A stretch of 63,353 nucleotides of DNA, filler included, from Hausera hauseri (taxonomy: Eukaryota): NCBI GenBank assembly GCA_046269625.1. It is 10 parts of 10 records of this genome, joined end to end, with 100 filler letters (N's around TTAATTAATTAA, not from the genome) between each part and the next. Parts side by side here need not be neighbours in the genome. Positions count along the whole stretch, not along the records: positions 14,504 to 22,641 come from JBJURY010753208.1; 9 more parts are not named here. One strand, written 5' to 3'. Of this stretch, positions 5,060 to 57,963 are shown one piece after another (within the stretch, counting starts at the first letter, position 1; every line of letters begins with the position of its first letter). A model generated the notes under the pieces. It saw only the letters and a list, made by a program, of their open reading frames with translations. It did no database searches and was not told where the DNA came from. The position numbers and the translations under genes are program-made.

Positions 5060-5476
5060 GCCTTTCCAAAACCAAACGCCGAACTAATATTGACTACCGA
5101 TGCCTCTACCAAAGTAACTGGTACGATATTACACCAAATATACAATTACGTCGATGAACCATTAGAATTCTATTCCCGAAAGCTTACGCAACCTGAAAGT
5201 CGATACTCAGCATTTGATCGTGAACTCTTGGCTGTAGTTCTAGCGGTAAATCATTTCAAGCACTTTCTTCTTTTACGTCAATTTACCATCCAAACCGACC
5301 ATAAGCCTCTACTTCACATAATGACTTTGAAACAGCCCTCACCCAGGCAAGAACGACAGATATCATATGTGTCGATGTTTAGTTTTTCCATGAAATATAT
5401 TTCAGGCACCGAAAATTTAATAGCGGATTTTCTTTCGCAGTTGGTTAACTCAATTACATATTCTGCAAGCTTTTAA
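5060..5476 (+). pseudogene. pol: Gypsy RNase H
   Basis: TTDAS, FYSRKLTQPESRYSAFDRELLAV, TDHKPL, GTENLIADFLS. Confidence 0.95.
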
Positions 5477-5619
5477 ATCTGTTGAAATCATCGAAGGCAT
5501 CGCTTATGACAATTCCAACTCGACGAAAAAAAAAATCATTTTTGCTCCATCGCTAAAAAACAGCTTTCAATCACTTTCATTCTCTTTATCATCCGCGTTC
5601 AAAAGTCATATTTAGTCTA

Positions 5620-6530: not shown

Positions 6531-7073
6531 TGATGACCAGCATAACGGCATTGTTTCAAATCCCAACTTTAACTTCTATACCCTCAAGCCATCATTTAAT
6601 TTCCTTGATGATTTTAATCCTTTGCAGCCATCAATATCGCGTCACGATCAGTTCTCTTCACTTCCATCATCATACAGTGCTCCTTCACCACTTGCTTCTC
6701 CGTCATTGCCTGCACATCCACTATTCATTTCATCTTCATCGCACGATTTTCTGTTATTTTCAGTATCGTCTTCTTTGCGTGATCCATTTCCGTTTTCAGC
6801 GGATCATTTTCCGTCTTCTCCACTTTCACCTCTTTATAAAGCATCTTCCAGCACCAAAAAAATCCACAGTATCTCTCTCTCTCTCAAACGACTCCACAAG
6901 TACCAGTAAGATCTAACAGATCACGTCATGCGACGTTTAGTACTTACAGCAGGAGGAAGTTCATAGATGGAGTCCAACGTCTAACACGTACCAAAATCGA
7001 ATAGGTACAAGTTCTTCTTTTTCCTACTATAATCTCCACTTATTTCTTCTCTTCACAGTCTTTATCTCGCCAC

Positions 7074-14503: not shown

Positions 14504-14719
14504 ATTGAGGAAGTTTTTCCCTCGCGTTGGCGTAAATTATAACGCTTGTTTGACCGTATTTCTGTCTTGACAACTCTGTACTGACACAACTTCTTCCTTT
14601 CCATTTTTGATAATGTACACTGTGATTGGAGTGACTTTGGTAACTTCGTGTGGTCCTCTGACTATGCGAGTTCATTTTAATGAGGTGCCTTTCTTGGCTA
14701 CTGGGTAATGTACATAGAC

Positions 14720-15680
14720 CAAATTTCATTGTTCTATATCATGCGGTTTTGCCTTCTTATCGTATTGTTTTCTAAATTGCTCCTGATAATCTTTTGATAA
14801 TTTTTTGGAGATTTTCCAACACCTTCTCAATCGGTTTGTAACACGTCTGCGAAATTTTTTTCTAAATCTTCGAGGTTAACCGTATATGGCGTCATTCCTA
14901 AGTCCGCGAGTAACACGGCTTCCCGTCCAGACATCATACAGAATGGGGTGAATCCTGTCGCTAAGTGTGGCGCAGTATTAATTGCGAATTGGGTTCCTTC
15001 TAAAACTTCGTCCCAATCCTTTTGGTCCTTTGCTACTACTGTTAGTAATAGGCGTATGACAGTGGCATTCATTCGCTTGACCATTCTGTTGCACTGAGGA
15101 TGATACGCGGTAGTTGTTAGTCGTTCAATTTTGAATATCTTAATGATTTTCTCGAATAGTTCTCTGGTGAAATTTCTTTCTCGATCTGTGAGTATCTGAT
15201 CTTGGGGCCCATATCGGCAAGTAATCCTTCTTACTACGGCTTCTACTAAAATTTCTGCCTTTTGATCAATTAATGATATCAACTCGACGAAATGAGTTAG
15301 TCAATCAATACACGTTAAAATATATTTATTGTTCTTGTGAGTCGTAGGAAGAGGTCCTAAGATATCCATCGATATGGCTTGCATAGGCCTGTCGGTACAT
15401 GAATTGGTTTTAGTTCGTCCATATAATTTTTCGTCTTCTTTTGTTTAGTTGCACATACTTTGCAAGCATTTACCCAATTTTTCACATCAATATAGATACT
15501 AGGCCAGAAATATTTATTTATTATTCTTTCTAATGTTTTCTTCTAGAACATGTGTCCTGCCAAATATGAATCGTGTTCTGACATTAGTACTTCAGTTCGT
15601 AAACCTTTTGGAATAACTACAAGTTTCTTTCCTTTCCGTTCGTAATATAAAATATCTTCATTGCTCTTGTCATTTAAGAC
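14720..15680 (-). pseudogene. pol: Gypsy integrase (HHCC and DDE core)
   Basis: LAGH...YFWPSIYIDVKNWVNACKVC; ILTDRERNF; TTAYHPQCNRMVKRMN; FAINTAPH. Confidence 0.93.
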
Positions 15681-16325
15681 TCAATATTTATGTCCGTGTC
15701 TGTGTAAATGTTTCTTTAACTGTCGTCCTTTTGGTATGACATCTTTCTTAGCAAATTCTATAATCTGCTGGATGATCTTATCCTTTCTTTGTTTTGTTGA
15801 AATTTTAATGGCCTTATCTATCGTTAAAGCGCGTTGGCGGTCTATTATTTCCTCAAGTTGACTCTTCCTTATTACAGTGATTGCGCTTGTTTTCGTCTTT
15901 AATCTCGATATTGCATCTGCGTCTACATGTTTGTTTCCCGGCTTATATTGGAATTCAATATTATATCTCGATATCTCTTCGATCCATCTATTGAGTCTAC
16001 ATGTCGGATTATTTACTCGGCCCTTCAAGGTCGTAACGGCCTTGTGATCAGTGACGATTATGATTTTCTGCCAGTATACATAAACGTTGGAGTGGCGAAG
16101 AGCCTCTTTTACAGCTGGAGTTTCCAATTCGGTAACAGAATAGTTTTTCTCGGCCTTCTTCAAGGAACGTCCTCCATAAGCAATCGGGTGCTCTAATTCT
16201 TCATCTTCCTTTTTCTGTGCTAGTTCATAACCAATGCCTTCTTTACGGGCGTCTGTCTTGATTATAAAAGGTAAGTTAAAATCTGGATACCGTAAAACCG
16301 GTTCGCTTGTTAATATCTTTTTCAT
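15681..16325 (-). pseudogene. pol: Gypsy RNase H
   Basis: PVLRYPDFNLPFIIKTDA, AEKNYSVTELE, VTDHKA, HVDADAISR. Confidence 0.95.
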
Positions 16326-16345
16326 CTTATCAAAAGCTTTCTGTT

Positions 16346-17146
16346 CTACGTCCGTCTATTTCCATTTAATTCATTTTTTAAGTAGACGATATAAAGTGCG
16401 TTTATCTTCGAATTATCCGGCACATAGGTTGCGTAGTAACCGTATAACCATAGCCAGTGCCTTAATTCTTTTTGGTTTTGTGGTTCCATGCAATCTGATA
16501 TTTTATTTAATAACGATTTATCTGGTCTCGATGCTCCTTCTCCAACTATATGGCCAAGGTAGGACACAGCATTTTGAGCCCACTTGCATTACTTTGGATT
16601 TAATTTCAATCCAGCTTGTTCCAATCTCATCAGTGTGTGTTTGATATCCTTTAAGTGTTCCTCTTCGTTTTTTGACGCTGTCATTACGTCGTCCAAGTAC
16701 GCAAAAGCGTGATCCAGTAACATTAACATTTTATTCATCATCCTCGTAAATATGGCTGGTCCAGTAGTAATGCCAAACGGAATGACATTAAATTTATAAA
16801 CGCCATCGTGTGTTTTAAATGCTGTTTTATAGCGATCTTCGTCCTCAATCTCCACTTGCCAATATCCGGATTGTAAGTTCAGAGTGGTAAATCATTTTGC
16901 TCCTGAGAGTCGGTCTAAAGCTTTTTTTACTGACGGTAATGGGAAAGAATCTTTCATCATAAGATTATTTAGGGCTCTGTAATCGATACAAAATCGATGT
17001 TTTGTAGTACCTTTCTTTTTAACCATGAGGATTGGTGAATACCAAGATCTATAGCTGGGCCTAATTATATCGGCCTTAAGCATTCGTTCAACTTCCTTTG
17101 TTATCTCGGACCTTAGAGAATGTGGCGGAGGGTACCATTTTGGCAT
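16346..17146 (-). pseudogene. pol: Gypsy reverse transcriptase
   Basis: RFCIDYRALN, KTAFKTHDGVYKFNVIPFG, AYLDDV, SYLGHIV. Confidence 0.96.
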
Positions 17147-17539
17147 CTTCTGATCTTCAAGATCTATTTCCTCATTTGAACTCGGCTTTTTCTTGAATGG
17201 AATGGTTAGTTTTAACGCTTTCGCTCTACCGATATCTTTTTAGTCCTTAGCGATGATAGATTTATAACGGCACAACCATTCATAAAATCGACAATATGAT
17301 TCGGGGAAAAACTTAGTTTCGACATGCGGTGGAAATTCGGCGTACTTGTACGGTTTCTCTTTGATAGTTATCGACGATACTCTATACGTGTCTCCTAAAG
17401 TCGTATAAGCATGAAGTTTAACGGAAGTCTGCGCATTATCAGCTATTCTGATCGGCACTTGACCGGAGTGTACTCTTGTTAATACATTGCTGAGTAATAC
17501 ATTGTGGTCTAACGTATCTCTTGGTTCAAAATATACTGG

Positions 17540-18118
17540 TTAATTGTCATCTTGCTGTATCTGGGCATAAATTATTATTTCTGTTTTATGTGGAATATTT
17601 TCGTCAACTGGTATCCACACTTCTCCAAATTTTCTATCTTTGGCGTTTTTCACGCCTTTATTTGGTCTGATTTCGATTAACTTCCCTGTTTGTAAGTCAA
17701 TTTCTATATTTGGTAGTCTTTTCAGTAAATCACATCCTAAAACTACGTCGTCGGTTAATTGCTCTATAACTGCAAACTCGTGATGGAAAAACTGTCCAAC
17801 TATTTGAACTTCTGGGTTCCATTTAAACATTGGTTTTGGCATTTGACAAAAAGCTCCTGTACTTCCTGGATCTTTCGTAAACGGTGGGTACAATTGTCCT
17901 CTCAGGGTTTGAGGTATTAAATCATTTTTGATGTAAGACATCTCGGATCCTGTATCGATTAAGACGTAAACTTCCCAATCTTCGATAGTGATTTTGGCGG
18001 AAGGTCTTCCTTCTATCACTGTCCCGAAACAGGTCGATGTATCCTTTAAGCTTTTCAGCGCCGATATTTTATGTCCATTGATTCGGATTTCGGGTGACGA
18101 TACTATATTTTCCGACAA
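17540..18118 (-). pseudogene. pol: Retropepsin aspartic protease and linker
   Basis: VLIDTGSEMSYI catalytic motif; DDVVLGCDLL. Confidence 0.9.
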
Positions 18119-18699
18119 TTAACTTAGTTTTTCGTTTGGATATAATTCGTTGTTTTCTACGTGGAATTCTTCCGTTTCATGTGTACTAATTAACGGTTCT
18201 CTATTGTTAGTATATAATTTTAGTATTCTGGAAGGCTTTTAGTCGTTGGTTGTCCCAAACTGTTGATCTAGTTTCGATATTCTTAGGTTCTCTCGGTGAG
18301 TACAGCATTTTGAGGTCATCTGTGGATTGTCGGTAGCACATTTTCCGTAGAATTCCGTAACGTTTTGTTCCCTCATAAGGATCTTCTACATTAATTGTTC
18401 TTTTATATATTTCCGTCTGGTATGAGCTCATTGATCGTTTGTCACAATCCTCACAGAATGGAGCGGTAGGAGGTAACATGGGTAATAACACTTTAATGAT
18501 AGAGTATGTCTTGTATCGTCTTGTTCTTGAAAGTGCTTCTCCTCCATTAGGCTCGTAATCATCTGAATTATTTCTTCGCGTAATGGGTTTTGTAAATTTT
18601 TGCTTCCGTAGGTATATAGGCCTTCCTTTTCGTTTACGATTATGATAGCCGACATGGCGTTCTACGTCCGATTTCCACCTATTGTCTTCGTATGCTTTC

Positions 18700-20520
18700 A
18701 AGAATTTTCCAAAAGGCGTTATGATCGCAGTTAAGATTTTGCAAGAGACTCCGGTCAACGTAAATATTTCATACCCATTTATCACGGCTTAAATAACTGC
18801 GTTGATCATTTGTATCAGAAAATATATAGCTAAGAATCCGGATGCGGCTTGTCCAAATATCAAAAATCTTCCCCAAATTTCTGTGGTTACTGGCTGATAA
18901 TGATTTACGCCAAGTAAAGATTCCCATTTCGCCTAATATCGTGTATCATCTACTATAGAAGCCATAGCTCGATTTAACTCGTGTGTTCGTTGTCGTGGAA
19001 AGGCAAGGAATTGTCTAAAAGCCTCCATTTCCTTCGGCTTGTATATATCTTTTGATGAGGTGTCTTGAAATTTATCGTCTGTAATTCCTTTCGCAAGATT
19101 TGTTCCTGTCAATTTATTTAGAGCGGCAATAATACCTCTATTTGGCAAGCTGACCCAATCTGTTTCATTACGTCTAAACATAGGTTTTCCTAAGCTTGCC
19201 TTACAATTTTTAAGGATGGTCGGTTGGGTAGCGTTATTCAATAACCCTCTCGTCAGCGATGTAGCTAATCTCGGATTATTTTGGTAAATAACAGGAAGTT
19301 CCTGAATGCAACGTTTTCCTTCCACGTTGATGGGCACATCTCTCTTTTCACATTCATAAGTTAGCAATACTTCGCCTGTTACCCGACCGAAAATTCCTTC
19401 TCTCATAGGAATTATTGGTGAAGCCAACTCTGGTTTGGCGTATATGAGAGCCAATTATGTTCTCATAATTTTGGTATCTAATTTGCAGTCATTCATTATC
19501 ATTTTGTAATATAATTCCGTTATTCCGACTTGTCCTTTGTAGTAAAAGTAATCATTTCTATTCTTCAGGTAATCTTCGATGCGGACATCCTGTGTTTCTA
19601 GCTTATAAGTTTTCGCACTTATCGCCATCTCTGCGACGAAAAACGCCACATAGTTCGTAGCAAACATCACTACATCATAGCGGAAAATCATCTCTTTTTT
19701 AATAATTGTTAATCCATGCTGATCCGAGATTAATATAGTAGGTGTATAGTGTTCTGATACATCCTCACGTGTCTTCGAATTGGTTTCTGATTTGTCCACA
19801 TATCTCTTTCCTGTAGTCTCATTGAACTTTAGTTCTTTAATTTTAATAAAATTACAATTTCTTCCAGAGGAGGTTCCCATATTATAACGGAGTTCCTAAA
19901 AGCACAGGTTCCGTCTTGTAAATGACATTTTTGATTTTCTGTATATAGTTTGGTGACACTATGGAACATTACTTTCTGTGATCACATTTCCGATTCGTTA
20001 AAATCCACAACCACCACGTTTGATTCTAATCCTTTTCCGGTATCATATTCTGCTCCATTACAGTGTCCGCTATGCATATCTAATCTTCCGGCTACCACTT
20101 TGTATGTCCTGATTGTTTTTCCCGGTTGCATCTACAATTGCATACTGTCCCATTGTATTCTTCCCGTTTCTTTGGCTTGCTTGTAGCGTTGGCGTTCTAA
20201 ATTCATCGAAATTAGTGGAGTTGTTGGCTTGATTATAGAGGAATGTCCGTGTACTAATCCACAGTGAAAAATGTTTCGTGATCGTCTCAGCATGCATTCC
20301 ATCCCATCCAACGATATCTGTTTTTGTTGTTGGTATAAGAAGTAGTTTTTCTCCTTTGTCTCCAACTTGTGTTTTCTGGCATCTTCGCATGCTTCCAAAT
20401 CCATTAGGGAATATCTCTATCCTAATTTAAACTTATCGCAGTCGTAGATGGTTACAGCGCCTATGTGCTTTATTAGCATCATCAAGGTGAGTAAGCTAAT
20501 TAGCCAATTCGGTTCTATTT
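18700..20520 (-). pseudogene. env: Chuvirus-like (class III, gB-type) envelope glycoprotein with internal signal peptide and C-terminal TM segments
   Basis: NWLISLLTLMMLIKHIGA|VTIYDC..YSLMDLEAC..ECMLRRSRNIFHCGLVHGH; ELYYKMIMNDCKLD..GEVLLTYECEKRDV..CIQELPVIY; IYKPKEMEAFRQFLAFP; WGRFLIFGQAASGFLAIYFLIQ..INGYEIFTLTGVSCKILTAI. The motif series matches recalled chuviral G. Confidence 0.85.
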
Positions 20521-22641
20521 TCCGGCATCCAACGTCCGCCGCTGTCAAATTACGTAACATATCGTCGAATTTATTATTGTTTCGTTTGTCTTCTTCCTTG
20601 TCAAATAGTCTTGACCAATTTACTTCGCAGGGCAATCTTTTTGCTGCTTTTTGTGCTAAGCTTATAGCTCTATTGATTTCATTCTCTCGATTAGGATTTA
20701 TTTTGATGACTAAGTATAGTAGTATTTTCTTAATTCATCATTGGTGTTCTCTATCATATTCTTTTCGATTACCGATTTGTCGGTTAAGTTGCTTTTTGAT
20801 AGTTTAAAACGTGAACTTCTCATCATTTTGGCCGCATCAAAAATTATCTTTTCTTTATCGTCTAATACATCACCTCGAAGGCTTGAATAATTTACAATTC
20901 GTATCAGATTCTTCATTAGCTCGTTTATTTCTTCATTATCTGTGCTAAAGTTGGAATTGACATTTGTCTCAATTCTCTAATCAATTCTTCGTTGTAGTCT
21001 ACTTCTTCTCGCGTTTTCTTGCGCCTACCGATTTGACGTTTCGGCCTTGGCCCTTTGGTGGTCATTTCGCTCAATGGTACTAAATTTATATCATATTGTT
21101 CCTTATCTTCATCCGTTTGTAAATACTCGAAATACATTGCAGCATCTCGGACTCCCATAATTTGTCCTACGCATTGTTCCTCTTTAGCCTTACGTGTGGC
21201 TTCTTTTTTTGTCTGTTTGTTAGCTATTATTGCTGCTATCCGGTTTGTTTCGTCGGCGATAATCCCGACATCTATTAGCTGTTCTAGGTCGTCAAGTATT
21301 CTACCTCTAAAGTAAAATCTGTAATTTAGATCATTTGTTCCACCATTGTTTAACAACCATTCTTTTACATTTTTACATAGAAATATGTAGTCAACTCACA
21401 TTCTTTTTTATCCATCTACTCGGATGATATTATTACTTTCATCGCTACCTCAGGTTTAGTCCTTAAAATTTTGACGTATTTCGTTATCAACAGTTTCGGC
21501 ACCGTGCTATAAATTGTGTTCTCATTAGACAATTTAGTTAAAGTTGGAATAAGTCGTCTTAATTTATTTTCAGTAATATTTACATAAATTAGTTCGATTA
21601 AATCTTTTTCAGTTAGCGCTGAATCCAGGAGCATCTCCACATTGAACCTCCTGTTCTACGGGCACGTTTCTATTTCATTTAATTGCACTGGGGTAATAGG
21701 TTTCTCAGCACGTATCGCATCGAAGTATGCATCCCATTCGGGTTCGTTTTCAGCATCTGGAAGTCCGTAATCCACTAAGACAGTATTTATTCTTTGCACA
21801 TTTTCTCGAATTTGTTTCAGTCTGGGCTGTATTTCTTTCATCTGCGTAGTACGGAAACCTACTCCGTTTCCACAGGCATACTGAATCATTTTTAGTAATT
21901 CGTCTAATTTATTAGGGTCGATCAGTCCCTTCTGATGATAATCTGTCAATTCAAGAATCACATCCTTTTGCCATCTTTGTACAAATTCTCGCTTATTTTT
22001 GATTTCTGATTCTGTAAAAGCATATTTATTTCTGTAGACTTCGAACTCCTTTGTTAGTTCATCTAGACTCGTTGCTCTTTGTTTTGTTTTGATGCACGTT
22101 TCTTCAACTTGCTGTAATTTTGGCATCAGTTGTCTCATCCTCTCGTCATTAATTTCCGCCATTTCTACCAATAGGTAGGCTAACCCATACATGTCATTTA
22201 TAATTTTTGAGTCGTGATCTATCGCGCCTGACAATTTCTTTACAAAATTAGATTCCTGAAAACTAATATGCTGATCATTTCTTATTTTTATCAATTCGGT
22301 ATGAAAGTTCTGATTTGATACAGCCATCTATTCTTGGTGTTTATGTAAAAATTTTATCGTGTCCGTTAAGGTGGCTCGGTGTTCCGGACAAATGTCCAGG
22401 TTTTCGATATCTTGGACAGAGATCTCATCGATCGGTTTATCTGTCAAATATTGAACTTCTTCTAATCGGACATTTTTCAATCGCGGATAAAAATTGCAAG
22501 TCATATTTCGCTTTTCGGTAAATTTTGTCTCTTTGATCATTTCATAGATCTCTTCCAGTATCGTCGCTTCTTGTTTCTTTTTCATAAAATTAAGTCGTCA
22601 TAATGCCTCAAATCGCGTGCGGATGTCTATCGCTGCTAGTA
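20520..22641 (-). pseudogene. Accessory polyprotein region of unknown function (SAM-like, helical and ubiquitin-like segments)
   Basis: Homologous to 47790-48905 (+) and 56918-57963 (-); EISVQDIENLDICPEHRATLTDTIKFL; YRFYFRGRILDDLEQLIDVGI. Confidence 0.7.
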
Positions 22642-27512: not shown

Positions 27513-28630
27513 CTACAACAGTTGTTTGTCGTCAAACGGATACAGTGCCTTCTTTTTTAAACTGATGGTCATCAACTGATGATTTTTGGTCCCAATTCTT
27601 TCCTGTTGAACCATTGTGCCACAACCATTTTCATATGCCTGTACATAGCTATCATCTTGCAAATTTGTCTGCTTGAGATTGATGCTCTTACATTTCATGA
27701 TTGGTTTACTTTGAGTTTTCGGCGAATACGATTTTGGCCATAAGAAAATCCTCTCTTGATACTGATCACAACCCTTACTTTCGTCTTTAAATTTCCCTAT
27801 TACATCTGAGAATCGAGATGAGTACAGTGGATCACTCAAATCATAGTTCGAAGTGTCCAGCTGCTGATTTGCAATCATTTCCGCTAAAAGTTGGGATCGT
27901 AAGTCAACACCATAGTACCAGAGAAAAAAGCTGTCCGTGCCATCGCCAGTGATATTTATCTCACAGTTAAACTGTTGCATATAAGTTTCCAACTCGATGT
28001 ATTTCAATTCATACATCCGCAACTTAGAAAGATCGAGAACAGCCTGACCGATGTATGAGGTCCTATCTAATGTAACCATATCTTTATCAAGGAGAACGGC
28101 AACCAGATCATCAATTATAATAATACTCTCCTAAAACTGCACCTTGCTAGTATATGTAATAAGCTTCTTAGCATTATTACAGTCTCAAGTTGGACATTTT
28201 GAGAAGATTCTTAACTGTCTTACCGTATATGCTATTGTTTTTCAGCTTAAAGAAATCTTTCTGGAAAGGATTATTTGTCGTTGCCCTTTTAAATCGATAT
28301 AATCCTTAAACGCAACCCTGGTCATATTCAACAACTCGATGAACTCTTTCAACAACGGCACCTAACTGAACGAAAAACTGCAAAAGCCGATAGTGAATGA
28401 CATAGTTGGTTTCCTTAACTCTTGGCCCAGGAGGACATTGATTAATCGGAGCTAAAGACAGTTTGTCAGACGGAATACTTATATCAACCTCATACACTAT
28501 GCTTCTTTTTCCCCTAACAGTGTCAAGATAAGGCAATTGCTCAATAAGACTGTTTAAAGTATCATCATTGTAAATCCAAATCATTTCAAATGGCAGAGGT
28601 TGTGATAAAGCCCAACCGTACAAATTATTT
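27513..28630 (-). pseudogene. pPolB: Polinton/Maverick protein-primed family B DNA polymerase, C-terminal half
   Basis: NNLYGWALSQPLP, YVIHYRLLQF, KDFFKLKNNSIYGKTVKN, YIGQAVLDLSKLRMY, GDGTDSF, IGKFKDE, KKALYPFDDK. Confidence 0.9.
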
Positions 28631-28808
28631 AGAGCAGAAAAGTCATATTACTGTTATTAATTTAGTCGCAGTTAGACTTGAAGTCAATCGAGTTTGTTGG
28701 AGAAATCGATATTGCGCAGGATAACGCATACAGTACCTGCACGCATTAAATTTGAGCACAAACCTTCAAGTGTAAACTATTGTTATAGTCGGGAAAAGTT
28801 AGGGCCCA

Positions 28809-35680: not shown

Positions 35681-35716
35681 ATAATTCAGATTTTACAGAT
35701 GCCATTTGTCTGTCAA

Positions 35717-45033: not shown

Positions 45034-46080
45034 ATGGCAGCAGATAACGCATCAATAGCGCAGAAATTGGACATCTTCACTTTCGATTCTCTAAACTAGC
45101 CGGCATACGACGGTGACCCGGACGGGCTTAAGAAATTCTTAAGAACTTATAAATTGCACGCAGAAAATGCTAGTCTTACTCCTGAAGTGATGATTTAGCG
45201 ATTGTTGTTGTATTTAAAAAATTTAGCCTCTGATGCCTACAGTGAACTCACTAATGACGATAAGAAATCTTGGTCCTCCCTGGTAGGAGCGTTAAATCGC
45301 AAATTAATGACGACAGTAGAGCAGCAACAAAAGCTTATGGCATTTCAGAACACAGTACAGCAAAAGGGTGAATCGGTAACTCAGTTCACATTTACGTTGA
45401 AGAAGCTTGCTAATAGTTATATTAGTACATTGAGGATAGCCAATGTAGCTAAAGCTAAGACAGATGCGGAATGTGACGCAGCGGAGAAGACCTCACCATC
45501 AGATTTAGATGTTATGATGACGACGCAACTAATAAATGGTATTTGGTCACGAGACTTGGTTAAACAATTGATTTTGGCTAGATCTGAGAATTTTAAAGGA
45601 ACGTTACAATTAGCTCAAGACTAAGAAATTGCGCTAGATAGATACTCCAGACATAACGATAGAAACGACAGGAATAATGATCGCGATGACCGGAATGATA
45701 GAAATCGCAATGAAAATCGTGGAAGAGATGACAGGCGATTTACGGGTAACAAAAATTATGGGAATAGAAGTAATAATGGCGGTTACAGAAGTGGCCGAGG
45801 TAGTAATTATACTAATACGAACAGATCAGATTCTACTGGAATAGGAATAGAGGAAATTATAAAGTCTCAAACTACTCGAATCAAAACGACGATAACCGAA
45901 ATAACGATAATCGACCAAATGCCGATAATGCGCAAAGTTTGTCAAACCAGTATAATAAAAGTATAAATAGATCTAAGTCACCAGTAAACGAAGACGGTCG
46001 GCAAAGAGTCGGCAGAAATGGGAATTTGGTTTGTTTTAACTGCGGTAAAGAAGGACATATTTCAAGGTCATGTCCAAATC
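45034..46080 (+). pseudogene. gag: Gag (capsid, Asn/Arg/Asp-rich linker, CCHC nucleocapsid)
   Basis: PAYDGDP..LKKFL, LLYLKNLASDAY, QQKGESVTQF..LKKLA (MHR-like), CFNCGKEGHISRSC. Confidence 0.9.
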
Positions 46081-46355
46081 CGCGTAGCGTTTCATTTACT
46101 GAACCAAATAAGACTAGTATGATTAGAATCAATGAAAATTTAGAAGCAAAGTATGGTATTCGTGGAGATACAGGCACTATAATTGATATACAGGACTTGA
46201 GAAAATTCTTAGATGCTCAGCCGGATACCACTAACTTACCAATTTTTATGGCTAGAAGAGAATACGGAGATAATTTGAGATTACTAGAAGTGTATCATGG
46301 TTTAGTAGAACCAGAAACTGAATATTAACACGCACTAGCACCCAAACGAATTGAT

Positions 46356-48269
46356 ATGACACGGAAAAAGAGTGTTCCGACAAGTAATAAAACATCTGAT
46401 AAACCAGGCACTTCGACGGCAGTCGACTTAGATGCAGAGCCTGAGTTTACAGTTGAAAAAGTAGCTAAGCTTACTGAGGACGATGCAGCAGAAAAAGAAT
46501 TTATGGAGCCATTAATATTCAAAATTACGAAAAATAGAGGCCGTAGCCCTTCATTTAAGACGAAACGTAAAAGTCATTCATGTTCACAAGTAACCAGAGA
46601 GAAAATTGAAGGAACGGAAAAACGGAACGTCGTTGTAGGAGGCGACATGAACCATAGTTTGAGCACACCAGAGATTGGTCCTTTTACGCCTACCGGGATA
46701 GCGAATTCTGTAGAGTCAATTAATGAAATTAACGAGATCTGCCCACTTCCCATTAGTAAGGAAGAAACAGCGAATGTTAACGATTTTGATCTAAAGAAGT
46801 GGAAAGTCCGACGTTCATGGAAAAACGCCGATGAGCTAAAGAAAATGCGAATTAAATGTCTAGAGCCCGAAATATTACAACGAAATTTGGAAAGGCTGAA
46901 GCAGATTAGCGAACAAGTAGACATATCCCGGAAAGAACAACAATTCGCTGAGAAGTTATATAAAAGTTTGAAACTGCGTAGCAAAGGAAAATTTGCGGAA
47001 GCAATCGACTTAGAACAACTCGAAGAGGTATCAACCGAAACGGTGTTAAAATGGAAGCAGGAATTAGAATCATGGATTAAAATCGGAGTAGAAATTTTCA
47101 AAGGATGGAATAAAAATGAAGATAGAGTCGACGTAAAAGTCATTAAGGCTCAGATGCTATTGTCTACTCTAGGGGCAAACCCAAAATTGAAGAGAGTAGT
47201 CCGTAATTTAGAACGTATGATGGACGAAATTCGGTACGCAACGATTAATCGGCTTAGTGAAAAATCGGTTAACCATCGCAGTAATATTGATTTAGAAATA
47301 TTGGGTATAGACCCGTTAGATATTCCTCCCTTGACGGAGATGATAAAAATCGCATTTGCTACGCCCAAGCTATATACAAACCTAGAAAAGCGACTTAAGA
47401 TAGAAAACGAAAAACGAGCACAGATTTATAGCTTGAGGAACCAAATTATGTCCCCAAATCACGAGGAGACTCAATATGTAGTAAAGGCTTGTATCGTAGA
47501 ATTGGACGAGTACAAGGACGAGTTCAGTTATGTCGGCCGGATTATGAATTTCCTAAGAGGACCAGACGATGAGTTAGAAGATGCATATAAGATGCTAGAT
47601 AAGGCTATAATGGCAAAACCGATAATCGCAAATCAACTGTCGGAGTGGTCCGAATTAATAACGCGATTAACCAAATTAGTAGAAGATCGGAAGAAGGAAT
47701 TTCTGCAAAGCGAGCCAATGGTAAAGAAGCAACTAGAGGAAAGTGCACATGATTTAGGCACAATGCGAATAGAAATAGACATCCATACTCAATTCGAAGC
47801 GCTACGACGACTAAAATTTATGGAAAAGGAACGAGGAGCGTTAACGATGGAGGAAATCTACAATCTGATCGAAGACACGAACTTTACGGAAAAACGAAAT
47901 ACGATTTACGATGTAATCTTAAGATTAAGGGTTGTTCGACTCGAAGGAGTCCAATACTTAACAGGAAAACCGATAGACGAAATTTCTGAACAAGACATTG
48001 AAATCTTGGACATTTGTCCAGGACATCGAGATATTTTAACGGACGCAATAAAATTCTTGCACAAACCACAAGAATGGATGGCCGGATCAGACCAGAATTT
48101 CCATACCAAGTTGACAAAAATAAGAGACTATGCACATTTTAGTTTTCAGGAATACAAGTTCGTAAAAAAATTGTCTGATGCAATGGACCCTGAATCAAAG
48201 GTTATAAATGAGATGTATGAGTTAGCCTATCTTTGGTGGAAATGGCAGAAATCAGTGATGAGCGGATGA
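46356..48269 (+). CDS. Accessory region ORF (637 aa open), helical, with two SAM-like segments
   Basis: Long uninterrupted ORF in frame with the zinc-knuckle ORF (one intervening stop); SNIDLEILGIDPLDIPPLTEMI and ISEQDIEILDICPGHRDILTDAIKFL. Confidence 0.7.
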   Translation: MTRKKSVPTSNKTSDKPGTSTAVDLDAEPEFTVEKVAKLTEDDAAEKEFMEPLIFKITKNRGRSPSFKTKRKSHSCSQVTREKIEGTEKRNVVVGGDMNHSLSTPEIGPFTPTGIANSVESINEINEICPLPISKEETANVNDFDLKKWKVRRSWKNADELKKMRIKCLEPEILQRNLERLKQISEQVDISRKEQQFAEKLYKSLKLRSKGKFAEAIDLEQLEEVSTETVLKWKQELESWIKIGVEIFKGWNKNEDRVDVKVIKAQMLLSTLGANPKLKRVVRNLERMMDEIRYATINRLSEKSVNHRSNIDLEILGIDPLDIPPLTEMIKIAFATPKLYTNLEKRLKIENEKRAQIYSLRNQIMSPNHEETQYVVKACIVELDEYKDEFSYVGRIMNFLRGPDDELEDAYKMLDKAIMAKPIIANQLSEWSELITRLTKLVEDRKKEFLQSEPMVKKQLEESAHDLGTMRIEIDIHTQFEALRRLKFMEKERGALTMEEIYNLIEDTNFTEKRNTIYDVILRLRVVRLEGVQYLTGKPIDEISEQDIEILDICPGHRDILTDAIKFLHKPQEWMAGSDQNFHTKLTKIRDYAHFSFQEYKFVKKLSDAMDPESKVINEMYELAYLWWKWQKSVMSG

Positions 48270-49682
48270 AACAATTGATGCCCAAGATACAGAAAGTAGA
48301 AGAAACATGTATCAAAACAAAACAAAGAGCGACAAGGTTAGATGAAATAACAAAAGAGCTTGAAGTCTATCGAAACAAATATTCTTTTGCCCAATCAGAG
48401 ATGGCAAAAAGATGTAATCATCGAACTAACAGATTTTCACCAAAGGGACTCATCGACTCTAACGAATTCGGTGAATTACTAAAAATGATTCAAAATGCCT
48501 GTGGAAATTGAGTGGGTATTCGGACTACGCAAATGAAAGAAATACAACCCAGGTTCTAAGAAATTCGGGAAAATGTGCAAAGAACGAGTGTAGCCTTTGT
48601 AAGCGCTGGACTCCCAGATGTCGGTAATGAGCCAGAATGGGATGCATACTTCGACGCAATGCTGACCGAAAAGCCCATGACTCTAATACAATTGAATGAG
48701 ATAGAAACGTGCCCGCTGAACAGAAGATTCGCTGGGGAGGTGCTACTGGATTCAGCGCTAACTGAAAAGGATTTGATTGAATTAATTAACGTAAATATTA
48801 CTGAGGATAAATTAAGACAACTTATTCCAACTTTAACTAAATTGTCCAATGAGAACACGATTTATATCACGGTGCCAAAGCTTTTTATTAGAAAATATGC
48901 TAAAATTGTTTCTAATGTTGTCACGAATAAAAAAGTTTAGCTGCGAGATGTGGCTGTTAAATAACCGACCCTACTCTCCTCCTAACCTCTTGTTGTATGG
49001 AGCTGACCTTGATTATCCGTTCAGCCATCTTTGTATCTAGTTCTTCTTCTTGTCTGATCACCATGCCACCGAGTGTGCAGCTCTCTGGATGGGCTCTGAA
49101 AAGGGGCTGTCGTTATAGTCGTAAAAAGGACTGCGGAGGGTGTGGCTCTGCTTTTCTGTCATCCTGGTAGTGTCTAGGAGATGGACCCAAGGTCCTACAG
49201 GTGGTAGTAGCAAGTGATCCACTGCACAATTGGGGACAATATAGAGGTTCCACCCATCAGCTGTTAGGTTTCCCTTTCACTACCCAGGAGACACGACAAG
49301 GATGTGGGCGAAAGTCTTGGCAGACTACAAGTCATCAATCCTGGCACTGTGTAACAAGGCCAGCTACGAATCGCCTAGAGCCTCCTGAAACCAGTATTAA
49401 ACTAGTTCATTGAATATTGTGTCACCAAGCAGTATTCACATGAGGATTCACGCATATACATATTTTTGAGAGAAACAAACATGGATGTGCTACTGAGACA
49501 ATAGAACTGAAAGAAGTTTCTAACGAATTTTTGACTCGATATATACAGGAAATTAATGCCTACCTCCACCAAATCATCACTGGTGATGAGTGATAGGTAT
49601 ACCATTACAACTCAAACAACATTTGTCTTTGGGGTGCTTATGTAAGGACTTACCTACCCTAAAAAAAAATTAAAATTAAATA

Positions 49683-49893: not shown

Positions 49894-51215
49894 TCATGTT
49901 ATTTTATCATAGATATACTCTTTGGGTTTCAGTACCCTTAATTCCCATTCATTGATTTTAGAACGCTTCTTCTGATAATTTTTGGTGACTAACCGAAAAG
50001 TCGCGAAACATATTATAAGCACAAGTGTTGGCAGGCTTACGATCATTAAAATAAGCAAAGTAGTCAGCCTTTTAGATTTTGTAGTAACTACATCTGTAGT
50101 TGTGTTATATCTCATGTCTTTGTTTAAATGTTGTACTACTTGTATTTCCTCCAGGGTTTGTATTATGAAAGTTTGACTCTGTGGGTCTTCTGCATGTATT
50201 TGTATTATTTACTCTGTCTTTGGTATTAATGAGTTGCATTCGGTGTGGTATATGTTTTTCAGTAGGGTTGTTTTTATGTGTCTATAAATCGTACGGCAAT
50301 TTATTTCGACGTCATAGCTGAGCTTTTCTTCCACCAAAAATCTTACGCAATTTTCTTTTGTTCATTTTCTTTGTCGTATTAAGTCTAACAGTGGTGCTTA
50401 CCGGAACAGTCAGTCTTGTCGTCGTCGTTTCGACCGCAATTTTCCATATTCTATTGTCTGAATAATATTTTCCTAAATAAGTGCTCGACTTATTTATTTG
50501 AATTCCGTAGAGGTCAAAATGAATCATATATTTATAGTCTTCTGACATTTAAAACAGATCCTAAGATTTGCGTTTCTGACGCTACGATAATTTGGAATTG
50601 GACTTAACTCCTTTATTTTGGTAAATTGGATTGAGATCTCTTGGTTGCTTGGTAATCGCCCTTTTGTATTTATTTGGATACATTTGTTTTTCTTATCTTC
50701 TGAAATACCAACTATATTTTCATTCAACACCCACTTTTTGGATCGGTTGATTTTACTATGTCACTAAGTTCTGTTCAATTGACTCGTTCTCTGGCAGGTA
50801 TTGCTAATTTTACTTGCAGTTTTATCGCTCCTTGTGTGCGTTCGTGGTTTTTGTAATACATTCGTATCTTGAAGGTCTAGGTGTTCCCATAATTTATGAC
50901 ACAATATCGTTCTGGCGTCCCATAAGGAAGATCACAATGGCTCATAATTTATTTATTCGCGTTCCGTAGAACTACTTGGTATTTTACTGATTTTCTAATG
51001 GTTCCGTCCGTCTTAGATAGTACACAATCTCATTTTGGATCTATACTTTGGACTTTGAAACGATATAAAGTGCATAAGTCATTCCTTTTATTTCTTATCA
51101 ATTCATCCTTCATTCATTTTTTTAGCCGTTGAATCAGTCCTCCTTGAGCCTTGGCTTTCGAAATATATGATACTATCAGTGATAGTGCTAAGACTATTTG
51201 TGCATAGGACATAGG
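49894..51215 (-). pseudogene. Second putative type I membrane protein downstream of integrase
   Basis: Signal-like MSYAQIVLALSLIVSYISKAKAQ; Cys-containing ectodomain pieces; Thr-rich stretch; TM LTTLLILMIVSLPTLVLIICFATF followed by basic residues. Confidence 0.6.
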
Positions 51216-51299
51216 CCTAGTAACTATAGATGAGTTTTTGGCTTTTCTACATTTTGTCTTCTGGTTTACTTCCGTATCCTTTATACGCAGTTGGCGTCG

Positions 51300-52502
51300 T
51301 TTATTCGGTTTTATTTCCGTTTCCACTACTCGCTGCACTGATACGACTTCTTCCTTTCCGTTTTTATTGACATACGCGGCAGTGGGTGTGATTCTCATAA
51401 CTTCATAAGGTGAGATTTAACAATATGCCTTTCTTAGCTACGGGATAGTGCACATAAACCCAATCTCCGTTTCTTAAATCGTGCGGTTTCGCCTTCTTGT
51501 CGCATTGCTTCTTAAATCCTTCTTGGTACTCTAAGGATAGTGTTTTCGCTACTTTCCAACATATTTGTATTTTGACTTGTAGAACTTCTATAAAATTTGG
51601 TTCTAGTTCTTCAATGTTTGCTTCATATGGAATCGCCCCTAAGTCCCTATGTAATGATGCATCTCGTCCGTACATCATGAAGAACGATGTAAAACCCATC
51701 GCGGGGTGCGGTGTTGTATTGATGGCAAATTATATGCCTTCTAGAAATTCATCCCAATCCTACTGGTCCTTTGCGACTATAGTTGACAGAATTCGTATCA
51801 CAGTAGCATTAATACTCGCAACCACTCCATTACATTGGGGATGGTAAGCTGCCATAGTTAACCTCTAGATTTCGAATATTTTCGTAATTTTATCGAATAG
51901 TTCGCTGGTGAAGTTCCTCCCTCGATCAGTTAGTATCTCACCGGGTGGTCCGTATCTACAGATAATTTTCCTTACCACGGCTTCGGCTAATGTTTCTGCT
52001 TTCTGATAATATAACGCTATTAACTGTACGAAGTGAGTTAAACGATCGACGCATGTTAGTATATATTTGTTATTTCTGTGCGTTGTGGGTAGTGATCCTA
52101 CGATGTCCATTGACATGGCTTGCATCGGCCTGTTCGGTACAGCTATAAGTTTCAGCTCTGCTACGTAATTCCGCATTTCCTTTGCTTAATTGCGCATACT
52201 TCGCAAATGCTTACCCAAATTTTCACATCAATATATATACTAGGCCAATAATATTTGTTCAACGCCCTATCTAACGTCTTCTTCCAGGACATGTGTTCTG
52301 CCAAATACGAATCGTGTTCGGCCATTAAAACTTCAGTTCGTAGAATTTTGGGTATAACTAATAATTTTTTTCTTTTTCGTTCGTAATACAGCACTTTTTC
52401 ATTGTTCTTTTTCTCGGAGACACAATATTTATGTCCACATCGTTGCAAATGTTTCCTTAACTGGTGCACTTTTGGCATTACGTCTGCTTCAGCGTAGTCC
52501 AA
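51300..52502 (-). pseudogene. pol: Gypsy integrase
   Basis: EHDSYLAEH..YYWPSIYIDVKIWVSICEVC; MDIVGSLP; ILTDRGRNF; AYHPQCNGVV. Confidence 0.95.
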
Positions 52503-52505
52503 GAC

Positions 52506-53900
52506 TTATTGAATAACTCGATCCTTCTTTTGTTCTCTCGAAATTCTAGTTGCTCCGTCGGACGCTAAGGTTTGTTGTCGATCTACTAACTTTTCGAGCT
52601 GATTTTTTTTCATTCTCACAATAGCACTTGTTTTTGTTTTTAATCGTGACAACGCATCCGCATCAACGTGCTTCACATCAGGTTCATATTGGAATTCAAT
52701 ATTATATCTCGAGATCTCTTCAGTCCATCTATTCAACCTATGCGTAGTGTTGCTTGCTCCTCTCTTTAAAGTTGTAACTGCCTTGTGATCGGTAATTATT
52801 ATTATCTTCTATCCATATATGTAAACGTTAAAATGCCTTAAGGCTTTTTTTGCTGCTAACGTTACTAGTTCTGTCACTGAATAGTTTTTCTCTTCTTTCT
52901 TCAAGAAGCGTCCTGCATAAGCGATTTGGTGTTCTAGTTCTTCATCTTCGCATTTCTGTGTCAATTCATATCTGATACCTTCTTTACTTGCGTCTGTTTT
53001 AATAAAAAACAGTAAGTTAAAGTCAGGATATCTCAGTACCGGTTTGCTAGTTAGTATCTTCTTCATTTCGACGAACGCCTTTTGGTCAACGTCGTTCCAT
53101 CTCCATTTCGTTCCCCTTTTTAATAATCGGTATAATTGCGCATTGATGTTTGAGTTATCCGGTACGTAGGTAGCATAATATTCACATAGATCTAACCAAT
53201 GTCTCAGTTGCTTTTGGTTCTGAGGTCCCATGCAGTCTGAAATTTTATTCAGTAATGATTTGTCTGGCTTGGATCTTCCTTCGCCAACTATATGGCCCAG
53301 GTATAATACAGCGTTTTGAGCCCATATACATTTCTTTAGGTTCAGTTTCAACCCAGCTTGTTCTAATCTTATAAAAGTGTCTTCAATATCCTACAGATGC
53401 ACCTTTTCATCTTTCGATGCAATCATTAAGTCATCTAAGTATGCAAATGCATGTTCAAGTCCCATTATCATTTTATTCATCATCCTGGAAAATGTGGCTG
53501 GACCGGTGGTTATTCCAAATGGCATAACGTTGAATTTGTATACGCCATCATGAGTTTTAAACGCGGTTTTATAACGATCTTCATCCTCAATCTCTACTTG
53601 CCAATATCCGGATTGTAAGTCAAAAGTGATAAACCATTTCGCTCCTGATAGCTTATCTAGAGCCTCTTTCACGGATGGTTAGGGAAAAGAATATTTCATC
53701 ATGAGAGTATTTAATGCTCTATAATCGATACAAAATAGATGTTTTGTGGTATCCTCCTTTTTAACCATAAGAATAGGGGAATACCAGGATCTAAAACTTG
53801 GTCGTATTATATCGGCCTTTAGCATACGTTCTGCCTCCTTGGCTATTTCTGGTCTTAGGAAATGCGGCTGCGGATACCATTTTGGTATTTTCTGTCCTTC
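52506..53900 (-). pseudogene. pol: Gypsy RT and RNase H
   Basis: FCIDYRALN, FDLQSGYWQV, MPFG, YLDDL, YLGHIV, KTDAS, KNYSVTEL, HVDADALSR. Confidence 0.96.
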
Positions 53901-54311
53901 GAGATCGATCTCGTCGTTAAAACCAGACTTTTTCTTAAGTGGTATAGTTAATTTTAACGTCTCTTCTCGGCCTATTTCCTCTTCGTCCTTTGCAATGATT
54001 GATTTATATCGACATAATAATTCGTAAAACTGGCAATAAGCTTCTGGTGAAAACTTCGTATCGACGTGGTGGAAATTCAGCGTATTTATACGGTTTCTCT
54101 TCAACCGTTATTTCTGATACTTTATAAGTATGTTCTAGAGTAGTGTTAGCATATAACGTCACTGGAGTCTGAGCATTGTTCACTATTCTTACAGGTATTC
54201 GACCGGATGCTACCCGGGTTAATATGTTGCTCAATATTATATTCGGGTTTAACGTTTCTCTTGGTTCAAAGTATACTGGTATATCGTCGTCTTGACAGAT
54301 TTGTGCAAATA

Positions 54312-54800
54312 TTAACAATTCCGTTTTAGACGGAATGTTTTCGTCGACCGGAATGCATACTTCTCCGGATTCTCTTTATTAATTTTAGTTCCCTTTATTG
54401 GTCCGAGTTCGATTAACTTTGAAGTATTCAAGTCTATCGCGACGTTTGGTAGTCGTCTTAATACATCACATCCTAATACTACGTCGTCTGTTAAGTGCTC
54501 CATTATAGAAAATTCATGTTGGAATGTCTGTCCCATTATTTTGAGGTTAGGGTTCCATTTGAATTTTGGTTTTGATTCTTGTCCGAAAGCTCCTATACTT
54601 CCGGGATCGGTTGCAAGTGGTGGTCGTAATTGACTTCGCAACGTTTTCGGTATCGATCCGTTCGTTATAAATTATCTCTCTGATCCGTTATCTACTAGTG
54701 CGTAAACTTCCCAATCTTCAATACTAATTTTGGCAAAAGGTCTACCTTTTATCTTAGGTTGTTTAGTGACGGATATCTTGTAACCATTTATACTAATTTC
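54312..54800 (-). pseudogene. pol: Retropepsin protease (degenerate)
   Basis: ALVDNGSE (DTG variant), DDVVLGCDVL. Confidence 0.85.
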
Positions 54801-55224
54801 TGGTGCTTTATTTTCAGCTACCTGTCTTAATTTTTCAATGGGATACAATCTATTGTTTACACTGTTTTCATGGTCTCGATCCGGTGTATTGATTAACGGT
54901 TCTTGGTTGTTTTGGCTATGGCAGGATTTCATTCGTAGATTATCCTAAATTAATGATTTAGTTTCTGTTCCGTGAAATCCTTGCAGAGTATATCTTGTGA
55001 TCATCAGCCGGGTGGCGGCATAATTCGGATTTTTCTCTGCTTCGATATTTTTTCCGTAACACGCCCGTACTGTTTTGTCCCTTCATAGGGATCTTCATAA
55101 TTGAAAGGCTTTCGATAGATTTCCAAACTATAGGAGTTAATAGATCTCTTATCGCTGTCTTCGTATTGTGGTGCCGAAGGGGGCAACATTGGTAAAGGTG
55201 GCCTAAGCGTTTTACGATTGCTTA

Positions 55225-56900
55225 GAAATCCTGATGCAGCTTATCCGAATATTAAAAATCTTCCCCAAATTTTATATAATATTTCTGTAGTAATTCTTTG
55301 ATAATGGTTAGCGCCAAGTAAGGATTCCCATTTCGCTTGGTAGCGAGTGTCATCCATCACCGTCGACATTGCTTTATTTAGCTCATGCGTGCGCTGTCGA
55401 GGGAAAGCTAAAAACTGTCTGAAAGCTTCGATCTCTTTTGGTCTGTAAATCCCTTTAATTGCCATATCAGCGAACTTGTCGGTTATACCTTTTAGTAAGT
55501 TTGTTCCGGTTAATTTGCCAGGTGTAGCTATGATTCCTCCATTGGGCAGACTTACCCAATCTGTCTCACTTCTCTTAAACATAGGTTCGCCTAAACCTGC
55601 TTTGCATTCTTTCAAAATGGTTGGTTGTGTCGCGTTTTCTAGCAAAACTCTAGTAAGTGGCATAGCCAATCGGGGTACGTTTTGATATATGACCGGCAAT
55701 TCTTGAATACAGCGTTTTCTTCTACGTTTAGAGATACATCTCGTTTTTCGCATTCGTAGGTCAACAGGACTTCTCCCGTAACTCTTCCGAAAATACCTTC
55801 TTTCATCGGAATTACAGGTGACGCTAGTTCTGGATTCGCGTAGATTAAGGCCAGTTTGGTTTTCATGATTTCCATATCCAATTTACAATCGTTTGCGATC
55901 ATCTTGTGATATAATTCTGCTAATCCAATTTGTCCTTTATAGTAGAAGTCATCTCTGTTCTTTAAATGATCATCTATTCTTACGTCCTGTGTTTTCAAGG
56001 TGAAGGTAGTTATTGCGGCTTCTGCCACAAATAATGCTTCGTAATTAGTGGCATACATTACTACGTTACATCGAGAGAGTATTTGCTTCTTAATGAATTT
56101 CAATCCGTGGTCCTCGGATATCAATATCGTGGGTGTAGATTGTTCAGCGACGTCCTTCCTTGGCCTGGCATTATTATCGATTGTCTCTACATACCTTTTC
56201 CTGTGGTTTCATTGAAATTTATTTTCTTTATTTTAATAAAGTTACAATCGTTCATAGGTGGTGGAGTCCAAATGACTATTGAGTTCCTGAAAGTACAGGC
56301 ACCATCTTGGATATGGCACTTCTGGTTTCGGTGTATGCTTTCGAAATACTATGGAACATCATCTTTTGGTTCCTTATTTCTGTTTCGTAGAAATCAAGCA
56401 CTACTATTCCTGCTTCTCTTCCTTTTCCTGTATCGTACTCACCTCCTTTACAGTATCTGGTATGCATATCCAGTTTTTTGATTGTTACCTTATATACTCG
56501 AATTATTTTTCCTGGCTCAGCCTCTGGATCCATTCCATCCCATCTCAATCTTCCGGTTTCTTTAGCTTGTTTGCACTGTTGTCGGTCTAAATTTTTAGGG
56601 ATTAATGGGGTTGTTGGTTTTACTACCGACGAATGTCCGTGCATGTTTGCGCAGTGGGAAGTACTTTGCGAATGTCGCAACATTCATTCTGTTCCGTCTA
56701 TTGTGATTAGTTCGCGTTGCTGATACAAAAATTACCTTTTCTCAATAGTCACTAACTTGTGAGGTGCAGCATCTTCGCGTAATTCCAAATCCATCAAGGA
56801 ATATCTTTGTCCAATCTTAAACTTATCGCAATCATATACGTTGATTGCATCGAGCTGTCTTATTAACATCATAAGTGTTATTAGTTTAATCATCCAATTT
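55225..56900 (-). pseudogene. env: Chuvirus-like glycoprotein, TM region deleted
   Basis: NWMIKLITLMMLIRQLDA|INVYDC; HCANMHGH; GEVLLTYECEKRDV; CIQELPVIY; GIYRPKEIEAFRQFLAFP; WGRFLIFG. Confidence 0.85.
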
Positions 56901-57963
56901 GATTCACTGTCTCGCACCTAGTTAGTTGGCATTAAATTTCTTACCACATCTTCGATCCTAGTGGTCGGCCTGTTTCCATCTTTATCATCAAATAGCTTGG
57001 ACCAATTTATCTCTTTAGGTATCTTCCTAGCGGCTTTTCTGATCAATCCGATGATTCTATTGAATTCATTTTCCTTTAAGGGATTCATTTTGATTGCCAA
57101 GTATAATATTACTTTTCTTAATTCTTCCTTAGTATTTTTTACCATAATTTTCTCGATTAAAACTTGATCGGATAAGTTGCTTTTATTTATTTTCAACCGA
57201 AAGGTTCTCATAATCTTCGCTGCATCATATATCGCTTTCTCTTTTTCGTCTAACATCTCGTCTCTCGGTCCTGAATGGTTTACTATTTTGATAATGTATC
57301 TCAGCAACTCGTTTAACTCTTCGCTGTCGGAGTTAATTGCGGGCATGGATAGTTGCCTTAGTTCTCGTATCAGGGCCGCACTTTGGTCAACATCATCTCT
57401 TATTTTTCTCGGCCTTCCAGCTGGTCGCTTCTGCTTCGGCGCAGTTGGTATTTGCTTCGATCATCGGTACTAGATTCATATCGTATTGTTCCTAATCTTC
57501 CTCACTCTGGAGGTAGTCAAAATACATGACAGGGTCTCTGACTCCCATAATGCGTCCTAAGCAATGTTCATCTCTTGCTTTTGTCGTAGCCTCATCTTTT
57601 GTCTGTTCGTCGATAATTATGGCCACTATTTGGTTTGTTTCTTCTGGAATAATTCCAACATTTATTAGTAGCTCGGGTTCGTCCAGTATCCTACCTCGGA
57701 AATATAATCGGTAATTTACTTCATTTTTTCCACAGTTTCGTACTATCCATTGTTTTCTGCTCTAAAAGATGTCATCGTTGTACATTCAATTTCTTTTTCT
57801 TCCATCCCTTCAGCTGATATTTTTACCTTAACCGTCGTTTCGGGTTTTGCCTTTAAGAATTCGGCGTATTTCTTTATCAATAGTCTGGGTACTGAGCTAT
57901 AAACGGTATTTTCGCTCGATAGTTTGGTCAATGTAGGGATCAATTGTCTCAGTTTGCTCTTCG

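Follow-up and report, generated by a model that had tools for sequence, protein, structure and literature searches.

In the genome assembly of Hausera hauseri (GCA_046269625.1), a stretch of 63,353 nucleotides (nt), analyzed here as a single window of ten contigs joined by N spacers, contains three broken copies of a Ty3/gypsy-type retrotransposon family in which a viral-type fusion glycoprotein (Env) lies between the Gag and Pol proteins. The copies are found on contigs designated C, H, and I. Contig C (positions 14504-22641, record JBJURY010753208.1), read on the minus strand, carries in order an accessory region, a hydrophobic signal-like segment, the glycoprotein, two hydrophobic helices, a linker, a protease, a reverse transcriptase (RT), an RNase H, and an integrase. 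Contig I represents a diverged copy that is about 70% identical to C overall, with one alignment of 3,469 nt at 72% and another of 2,772 nt at 68%. In both copies the order of the parts bears out the first-pass annotation of this DNA, which had placed the glycoprotein upstream of protease, RT, RNase H, and integrase.

The front end of the element comes from contig H, which shares 1,168 nt with the beginning of C at 75.9% identity (blastn); this is the overlap of about 1.1 kilobases (kb) by which the earlier annotation had assigned Gag and its CCHC knuckle to the family. The overlap between H and I is just 36 codons, so that Gag is tied to the glycoprotein via C alone and via natural relatives of the element. 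Of the three-way overlap that had been proposed, the C/H and C/I parts are substantial but the H/I part is slight. The env-pol order is seen directly in C and I, and gag is placed through the H/C overlap and the relatives. The summed non-overlapping spans reach about 12.2 kb, or about 4,100 codons, in agreement with the roughly 12 kb of coding sequence in the order Gag-accessory-Env-Pol-membrane protein that had been estimated at first. The contigs stop within about 50-110 nt of the coding region, and no long repeats were found in H or I. The homology of H to C breaks off at about 48907; the unrelated sequence that follows (48908-49682) starts near a TGTTGT motif and is possibly an inserted piece of a long terminal repeat (LTR).

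Table 1. Features of the gag-env-pol family in the window, in the order of the inferred element (pN/pS, ratio of nonsynonymous to synonymous differences per site; E, expectation value)
Feature	Position	Strand	Basis
Gag (contig H; broken by stops)	45035..45621	+	Pfam Retrotrans_gag, below cut-off, E 0.002
CCHC zinc knuckle, single (H)	46029..46079	+	Pfam zf-CCHC E 1e-7
Accessory region (H)	46329..48907	+	646-codon open frame; last 1.17 kb overlaps C
Accessory region (C)	20504..22641	-	pN/pS 0.32 (C/I), 0.22 (C/H)
Internal signal-like hydrophobic segment before glycoprotein (C)	20453..20503	-	hydropathy 1.96
Class III fusion glycoprotein ectodomain, chuvirus G/herpes gB type, broken (C)	18876..20452	-	Pfam PF24664, profile, model
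Glycoprotein membrane anchor region, two hydrophobic helices (C)	18717..18875	-	hydropathy 2.15 and 1.71; conserved in relatives
Coding linker, Env to protease (C)	18011..18716	-	pN/pS 0.37 over 93 codons
PTAP in linker (C)	18470-18459	-	late-domain-like motif
LYPNEKL in linker (C)	18145-18125	-	late-domain-like motif
Aspartic protease (C)	17714..18010	-	Pfam, below cut-off: gag-asp_proteas (E 4e-4) and RVP (E 1e-3); aligned by relatives
Protease-RT spacer, at the place of Burro's dUTPase-like domain (C)	17351..17641	-	11 relatives at E<0.01
Reverse transcriptase, Ty3/gypsy type (C)	16403..17134	-	Pfam RVT_1 E 2e-22, tree
RNase H (C)	15963..16355	-	Pfam RT_RNaseH E 4e-28
Integrase (C)	14567..15632	-	Pfam rve E 6e-5, relatives; C stops shortly after it
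Second diverged copy (contig I), accessory end to C-terminal tail	49897..57963	-	alignment to C, Pfam
PSAP in linker (I)	55180-55169	-	late-domain-like motif
YPIEKL in linker (I)	54845-54828	-	late-domain-like motif
Second membrane protein behind integrase, broken (I)	49897..51212	-	hydropathy, relatives

Judged by its Pfam matches, profile, and modeled structure, the glycoprotein is a class III fusogen resembling those of chuviruses and herpesvirus gB. Pfam Monjiviricetes_fusion (PF24664) matches two of six scanned pieces of the glycoprotein region in C (3e-7 and 4e-9, both above the curated cut-off) and, at the same place, three of four pieces in I, two of them above cut-off. A profile of 70 sequences led by the C piece 18792-19895, with X at stops, was compared with the PDB, where all 36 matches were herpesvirus gB, at weak significance (best E 0.0013). 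An AlphaFold2 model of the same piece has a mean predicted local distance difference test score (pLDDT) of 78.6 and a central helix of 40 residues. Foldseek comparison of the model places herpesvirus gB on top in the PDB (best E 4.5e-4, TM 0.31-0.35) and chuvirus-like glycoproteins on top in BFVD (best E 2e-12), so that the class III assignment of the first pass, which was open to contradiction at this point, held in both databases. A word-index search with the broken glycoprotein gave no match among 1,845 candidates.

Hydrophobic segments flank the ectodomain in C. The signal-like segment there shares its reading frame with the accessory region before it, as had been noted earlier, here over that region's final 77 codons, and the relatives are hydrophobic at the same position. 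The gB-type ectodomain lies between signal and membrane segments in C; in I the anchor region is largely deleted (about 340 nt). A second membrane protein follows the integrase in I, with a signal-like segment at 51212-51162 (hydropathy 1.78), a Thr-rich stalk, and a transmembrane segment at 50058-50008 (2.97). It has no Pfam match, and two hydrophobic segments stand after the integrase, as in I, in 13 of 15 integrase-bearing relatives.

Comparison of the remaining regions gives results of varied strength. The protease-RT-RNase H-integrase order of Ty3/gypsy pol is found in C by Pfam, the RT tree, and blastp, and a search with the RNase H returned only generic gypsy Pol proteins at 46% identity or less. 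The protease-RT spacer has no Pfam match and resembles a dUTPase-bearing protein weakly (E 0.027 in a four-sequence search). At the other end, the Gag of H is matched by the N-termini of 10 of 17 relatives, and the accessory region of H has no Pfam match and no usable match in the ESM Atlas. The pN/pS values of the accessory region of C indicate that it was selected as protein. A stretch at about 21460-21230 within it is weakly ubiquitin-like (Pfam ubiquitin E 0.14), and a helical stretch at about 20900-20570 looks, on visual inspection alone, like the Bcl-2-like domain found in relatives. For this pre-signal domain, profile comparison with five relatives (hhalign) is weak (E 0.1), the single-sequence model has a low pLDDT of 47.7, and the ESM Atlas gave no usable match. 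A basic R-P-x-G-R-P-R-K-like motif precedes the helical domain in C (21061-21030), in I (57440-57410), and in several relatives, and may resemble an AT-hook or nuclear signal.

Natural relatives of the glycoprotein are often long proteins. Searched with HMMER against 1.84 billion representatives, the glycoprotein piece had 215 matches, and 7 of the top 10 exceed 1,200 residues (aa). Among 18 relatives scanned for domains, chosen by hand as top matches and long ones, 10 have the glycoprotein followed by the protease in one chain, 5 of these with RT. A second search, seeded with one relative and restricted to proteins of 1,570-4,997 aa, yielded glycoprotein and protease in 16 of 16 proteins and also RT and integrase in 12. 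The Gag of H, the glycoprotein, and Pol occur in order in one uninterrupted protein in 7 of 17 relatives (P0212, P0214, P0216, P0217, P0219, P0220, and P0221). In many relatives (P0060, P0065, P0207, and others) the envelope is followed by two to four protease-like domains in tandem, compared with one in the window family. The closest glycoprotein relative, P0057, is a 2,627-aa env-pol retroelement polyprotein listed at NCBI as a hypothetical protein of a Flavobacteriaceae metagenome-assembled genome, and is probably animal DNA binned into a bacterial genome.

The RT and Env sequences point, with moderate support, to the same family of relatives. C and I join all 16 env-pol RTs on a long stem in a quick tree of 69 RT rows, at a value of 88 in the Shimodaira-Hasegawa-like approximate likelihood ratio test (SH-aLRT). 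In a quick glycoprotein tree of 63 rows, with stand-alone glycoproteins limited to 35, C falls on a long branch inside a group with all 25 glycoprotein-then-protease proteins (SH-aLRT 84). Because its RT is at most 47.5% identical to the closest relative found, the window family appears as a divergent branch of the gag-env-pol elements.

The first-pass annotation implied that such a layout might be novel. It is already published, the single polyprotein included, and what is new here is a divergent family member. According to PMC6431247 (2019), planarian Burro/GYPSM1 elements have an in-frame env that separates gag from pol within a single open reading frame (ORF) of 4,873 aa. PMC13524379 reports a gB-type env in GAG-ENV-POL elements of Nematoda, Bryozoa, and Platyhelminthes, including nine flatworm elements in the supplement, and credits the nematode elements to Sacco et al. 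2022 (doi 10.1099/jgv.0.001739), where env is reported to precede pol in a metavirus.

Comparison with these systems illustrates both likeness and divergence. Burro/GYPSM1, compared here by published description and not by Burro sequence, shares with the window family an env between gag and pol (in ORFs of 4,873-5,140 aa there, likely about 4,100 here), a retrotrans_gag domain and CCHC at the start (retrotrans_gag being weak here), an env resembling mononegavirus fusion proteins, and a conserved spacer between protease and RT. The ubiquitin-like and then Bcl-2-like domains that stand just before env in Burro/GYPSM1 are possibly shared, the window matches being the weak ones given above. In contrast, Burro/GYPSM1, with elements of more than 30 kb in all, has two or three CCHC knuckles and the window family one, and the BIR, ankyrin, and MATH cargo of Burro/GYPSM1 found no match in the scanned pieces of C and H. 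Because these three domains were not found and the ubiquitin-, Bcl-2-, and dUTPase-like matches are weak, the window family is called Burro-like, not Burro.

The gB-type errantiviruses of PMC13524379 share with the window family a Ty3/gypsy pol, a gB-type ectodomain between signal and membrane segments, and the same order. The motifs of the window glycoprotein follow the Schmidtea 'C1a' rows of supplement 2 of that paper, as compared by eye, not computed. Those elements are intact and often multi-copy, whereas the window copies are broken by stops and frame changes (17 counted stops in C and 15 in I). Uninterrupted ORFs are what that catalogue requires of an intact copy and do not bear on kinship. 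Mosquito BEL/Pao elements (PMC7642597) represent capture of the same glycoprotein family by an LTR element, but on a BEL/Pao backbone, whereas the window family has a gypsy-type pol with the glycoprotein ahead of it. Its protease, RT, and RNase H are gypsy-type and not BEL/Pao-type, and its nearest RTs are those of gag-env-pol gypsy elements in a tree without BEL/Pao rows.

The copies in the window belong to a larger population. Assembled contigs of run X1 (31,193, mostly 80-95% alike) and run X2 (1,994) cover all 30 bins of C, and the glycoprotein is covered as evenly as pol; run X1 may be the window's own source, so that its coverage is not independent. Because all bins are covered, C belongs to a large, mostly old, high-copy family that has decayed and of which the glycoprotein is a part.

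How these genes were expressed can be judged from the pattern of damage among the copies. Over 2,111 aligned C/I codon pairs there are 17 stops in C and 15 in I, and none of the 32 is shared; over 377 C/H codon pairs there are 3 and 2, again with none shared. These counts omit blocks shorter than 36 nt and the part deleted in I, and so leave out a stop ahead of the signal segment in I and one in the anchor region of C. C contains about eight frame changes, and most frame changes are limited to one copy. Four of the stop codons of C appear in a list of 40 places, and there 94-99.7% of the X1 contig depth has another letter. Mismatches between copies concentrate at one codon position, window by window. 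Uncorrected pN/pS, biased low by a choice of frames for best agreement and with pS near saturation, rises from 0.12 in RT through 0.21 in the glycoprotein and 0.32 in the accessory region to 0.37 in the linker, values that span the range across all eight regions. The Env-protease and other linkers look to have been selected as protein. Because no stops are shared, the linkers appear protein-selected, and 7 of 17 relatives are uninterrupted, a single polyprotein of about 4,100 codons is likely in the active ancestors, inferred rather than seen. The giant polyprotein of the earlier annotation is thus probable for those ancestors but is seen in no copy here, every one of which is broken. The glycoprotein tail of C, which that annotation had running into the protease, gets there only via a frame change near 18225. 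Taken as a whole, C, H, and I are probably three decayed copies of the published gag-env-pol Ty3/gypsy design, whose active ancestors likely encoded a single membrane-threaded polyprotein some 4,100 residues long.

A number of points weigh against this account. No copy is an open frame, Gag is joined through another copy, and the bias and near saturation of the pN/pS values lessen their force. Pol domains precede the glycoprotein in 2 of the 18 scanned relatives (the weaker matches P0077 and P0171), and the length range of the second search favors polyproteins. Both trees are quick and of moderate support, with the window rows on long branches, and the membrane topology, processing, and budding discussed below are predicted. 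Three further points also bear on an alternative that we regard as unlikely, namely the same gene order expressed from at least two ORFs, whether the accessory region held a programmed frameshift or stop, or env was initiated separately. A frame change occurs in both C (about 21385) and I (about 57775), where an inherited or programmed shift is conceivable; this site lies within the ubiquitin-like segment and aligns badly (16 mismatches in 30 nt), as expected from two nearby independent indels, which are the simplest reading. In I, the Met-started signal segment is immediately preceded by a stop, which is flanked by two small indels, but C is open at the matching place and lacks the Met. A frame change is also needed in H between Gag and the knuckle, where there is no second copy to compare. 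Moreover, according to PMC6431247, Burro-like elements may carry their accessory domains as separate ORFs. Against a multi-ORF arrangement, relatives are stop-free from Gag to integrase.

A quite different possibility is that the glycoprotein is a separate viral insertion nested within a gag-pol element, and chuvirus-derived glycoprotein insertions are indeed known in animal genomes (PMC7642597, PMC10084718). Here, however, the glycoprotein occupies an identical position in two copies about 30% diverged, its flanks are coding and under selection, the even X1 and X2 coverage extends across it, and relatives share the arrangement. No bracketing repeat of at least 16 nt was found, a length below which target duplications would escape. 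Nested insertion is thus ruled out in substance by the shared position, selected flanks, even coverage, and relatives, and is left with a very small probability.

Within the preferred single-polyprotein reading, the Env-protease linker is of particular interest. In both C and I it contains P(T/S)AP and LYPx3L, a resemblance that hints at retroviral budding signals. A spacing of three residues is also valid in late domains of the YPxnL type. The retroviral late domains PTAP, PPXY, and YPXL bind TSG101, NEDD4-family ligases, and ALIX, as PMC8952333 sets out. Among the linkers of 20 of 24 relatives (four with mis-parsed boundaries were left out), YPx(1|3)L occurs in 12, compared with a mean of 0.98 and a maximum of 5 in 1,000 shuffles, for a pattern picked after viewing the sequences and in a set where several relatives are near-duplicates. 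None was found in 11,501 residues of the relatives' N-terminal parts. PPxY (3 of 20 linkers) and PSAP (1 of 20) are neither above chance alone.

The same Tyr-Pro motif may have another explanation. Retroviral proteases cleave aromatic-Pro bonds, and the conserved linker motif could be a cleavage site of the element protease and not a budding signal, a reading that is possible though rather doubtful. It would fit the observations that hydrophobic-Tyr-Pro (16 of 20) is commoner than YPx(1|3)L (12 of 20) and that in 17 of 20 a Tyr-Pro precedes the catalytic Asp by 32-63 residues. It would not explain the downstream Leu retained at late-domain spacing, nor the presence in the same linker of P(T/S)AP, which both window copies and 1 of 20 relatives carry, and of PPxY (at its count not above shuffles). 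We tentatively propose instead, at slightly less than even confidence, that in single-ORF gag-env-pol elements the budding signals may have moved from Gag to the cytosolic Env-protease linker, which would make this linker the counterpart of p6 of human immunodeficiency virus 1 (HIV-1), swapping among P(T/S)AP, YPxnL, and PPxY from one relative to another. A membrane-tethered Env-Pol precursor would then drive budding of enveloped particles by the endosomal sorting complex required for transport (ESCRT), with the window family as a deep separate branch.

The topology that such a chain would adopt can be outlined from hydropathy and from the way proteins generally insert into membranes. Gag and the accessory domains would be made in the cytosol, after which the internal signal segment would direct the glycoprotein into the lumen of the endoplasmic reticulum, where host signal peptidase would free it. 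The anchor helices would bring the chain back to the cytosol, placing the linker, protease, RT, RNase H, and integrase on the inner membrane face, with Pol held to the membrane between the anchor of Env and another signal segment; this second signal and its anchor would add the second surface protein. One translation would thereby supply Gag, Env, and Pol at 1:1:1 on one membrane. P(T/S)AP and LYPxnL in the linker could recruit ESCRT for budding, as in HIV-1 p6, and the element protease would release the enzymes during maturation.

As the gene order is known, the finding chiefly adds a divergent, high-copy, decayed family. How a Gag-Env-Pol protein made as a single membrane-threaded chain assembles and leaves the cell is not explained in the accessible text of PMC6431247 or PMC13524379. 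'Late domain' and 'budding' are not mentioned in that text, 'polyprotein' and 'in-frame' do not occur in the available main text of PMC13524379, and no publication was found on late-domain-like motifs in such Env-protease linkers. The linker motifs bear on whether these invertebrate elements bud as enveloped particles.

Other elements accompany the family in the window. Contig A (304-1645 and 2644-6906) holds part of a host gene, free of introns and encoding two thioredoxin-like domains (Pfam Thioredoxin_14 and _15), which we take to be UGGT-like, directly upstream of an unrelated gypsy gag-pol. A near-intact piggyBac-like transposase on contig E (32191-33903) matches Pfam DDE_Tnp_1_7 at E 4e-69 and has a single stop and a Cys-rich tail. 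By eye, regions of contigs D (27516-28647), F (34584-40416), G (41724-42289), and J (58745-62749) look like fragments of Polinton/Maverick capsid, ATPase, and protein-primed polymerase genes, with no Pfam match at 0.001; a dUTPase among the fragments of these four contigs is matched by Pfam at E 1e-16.

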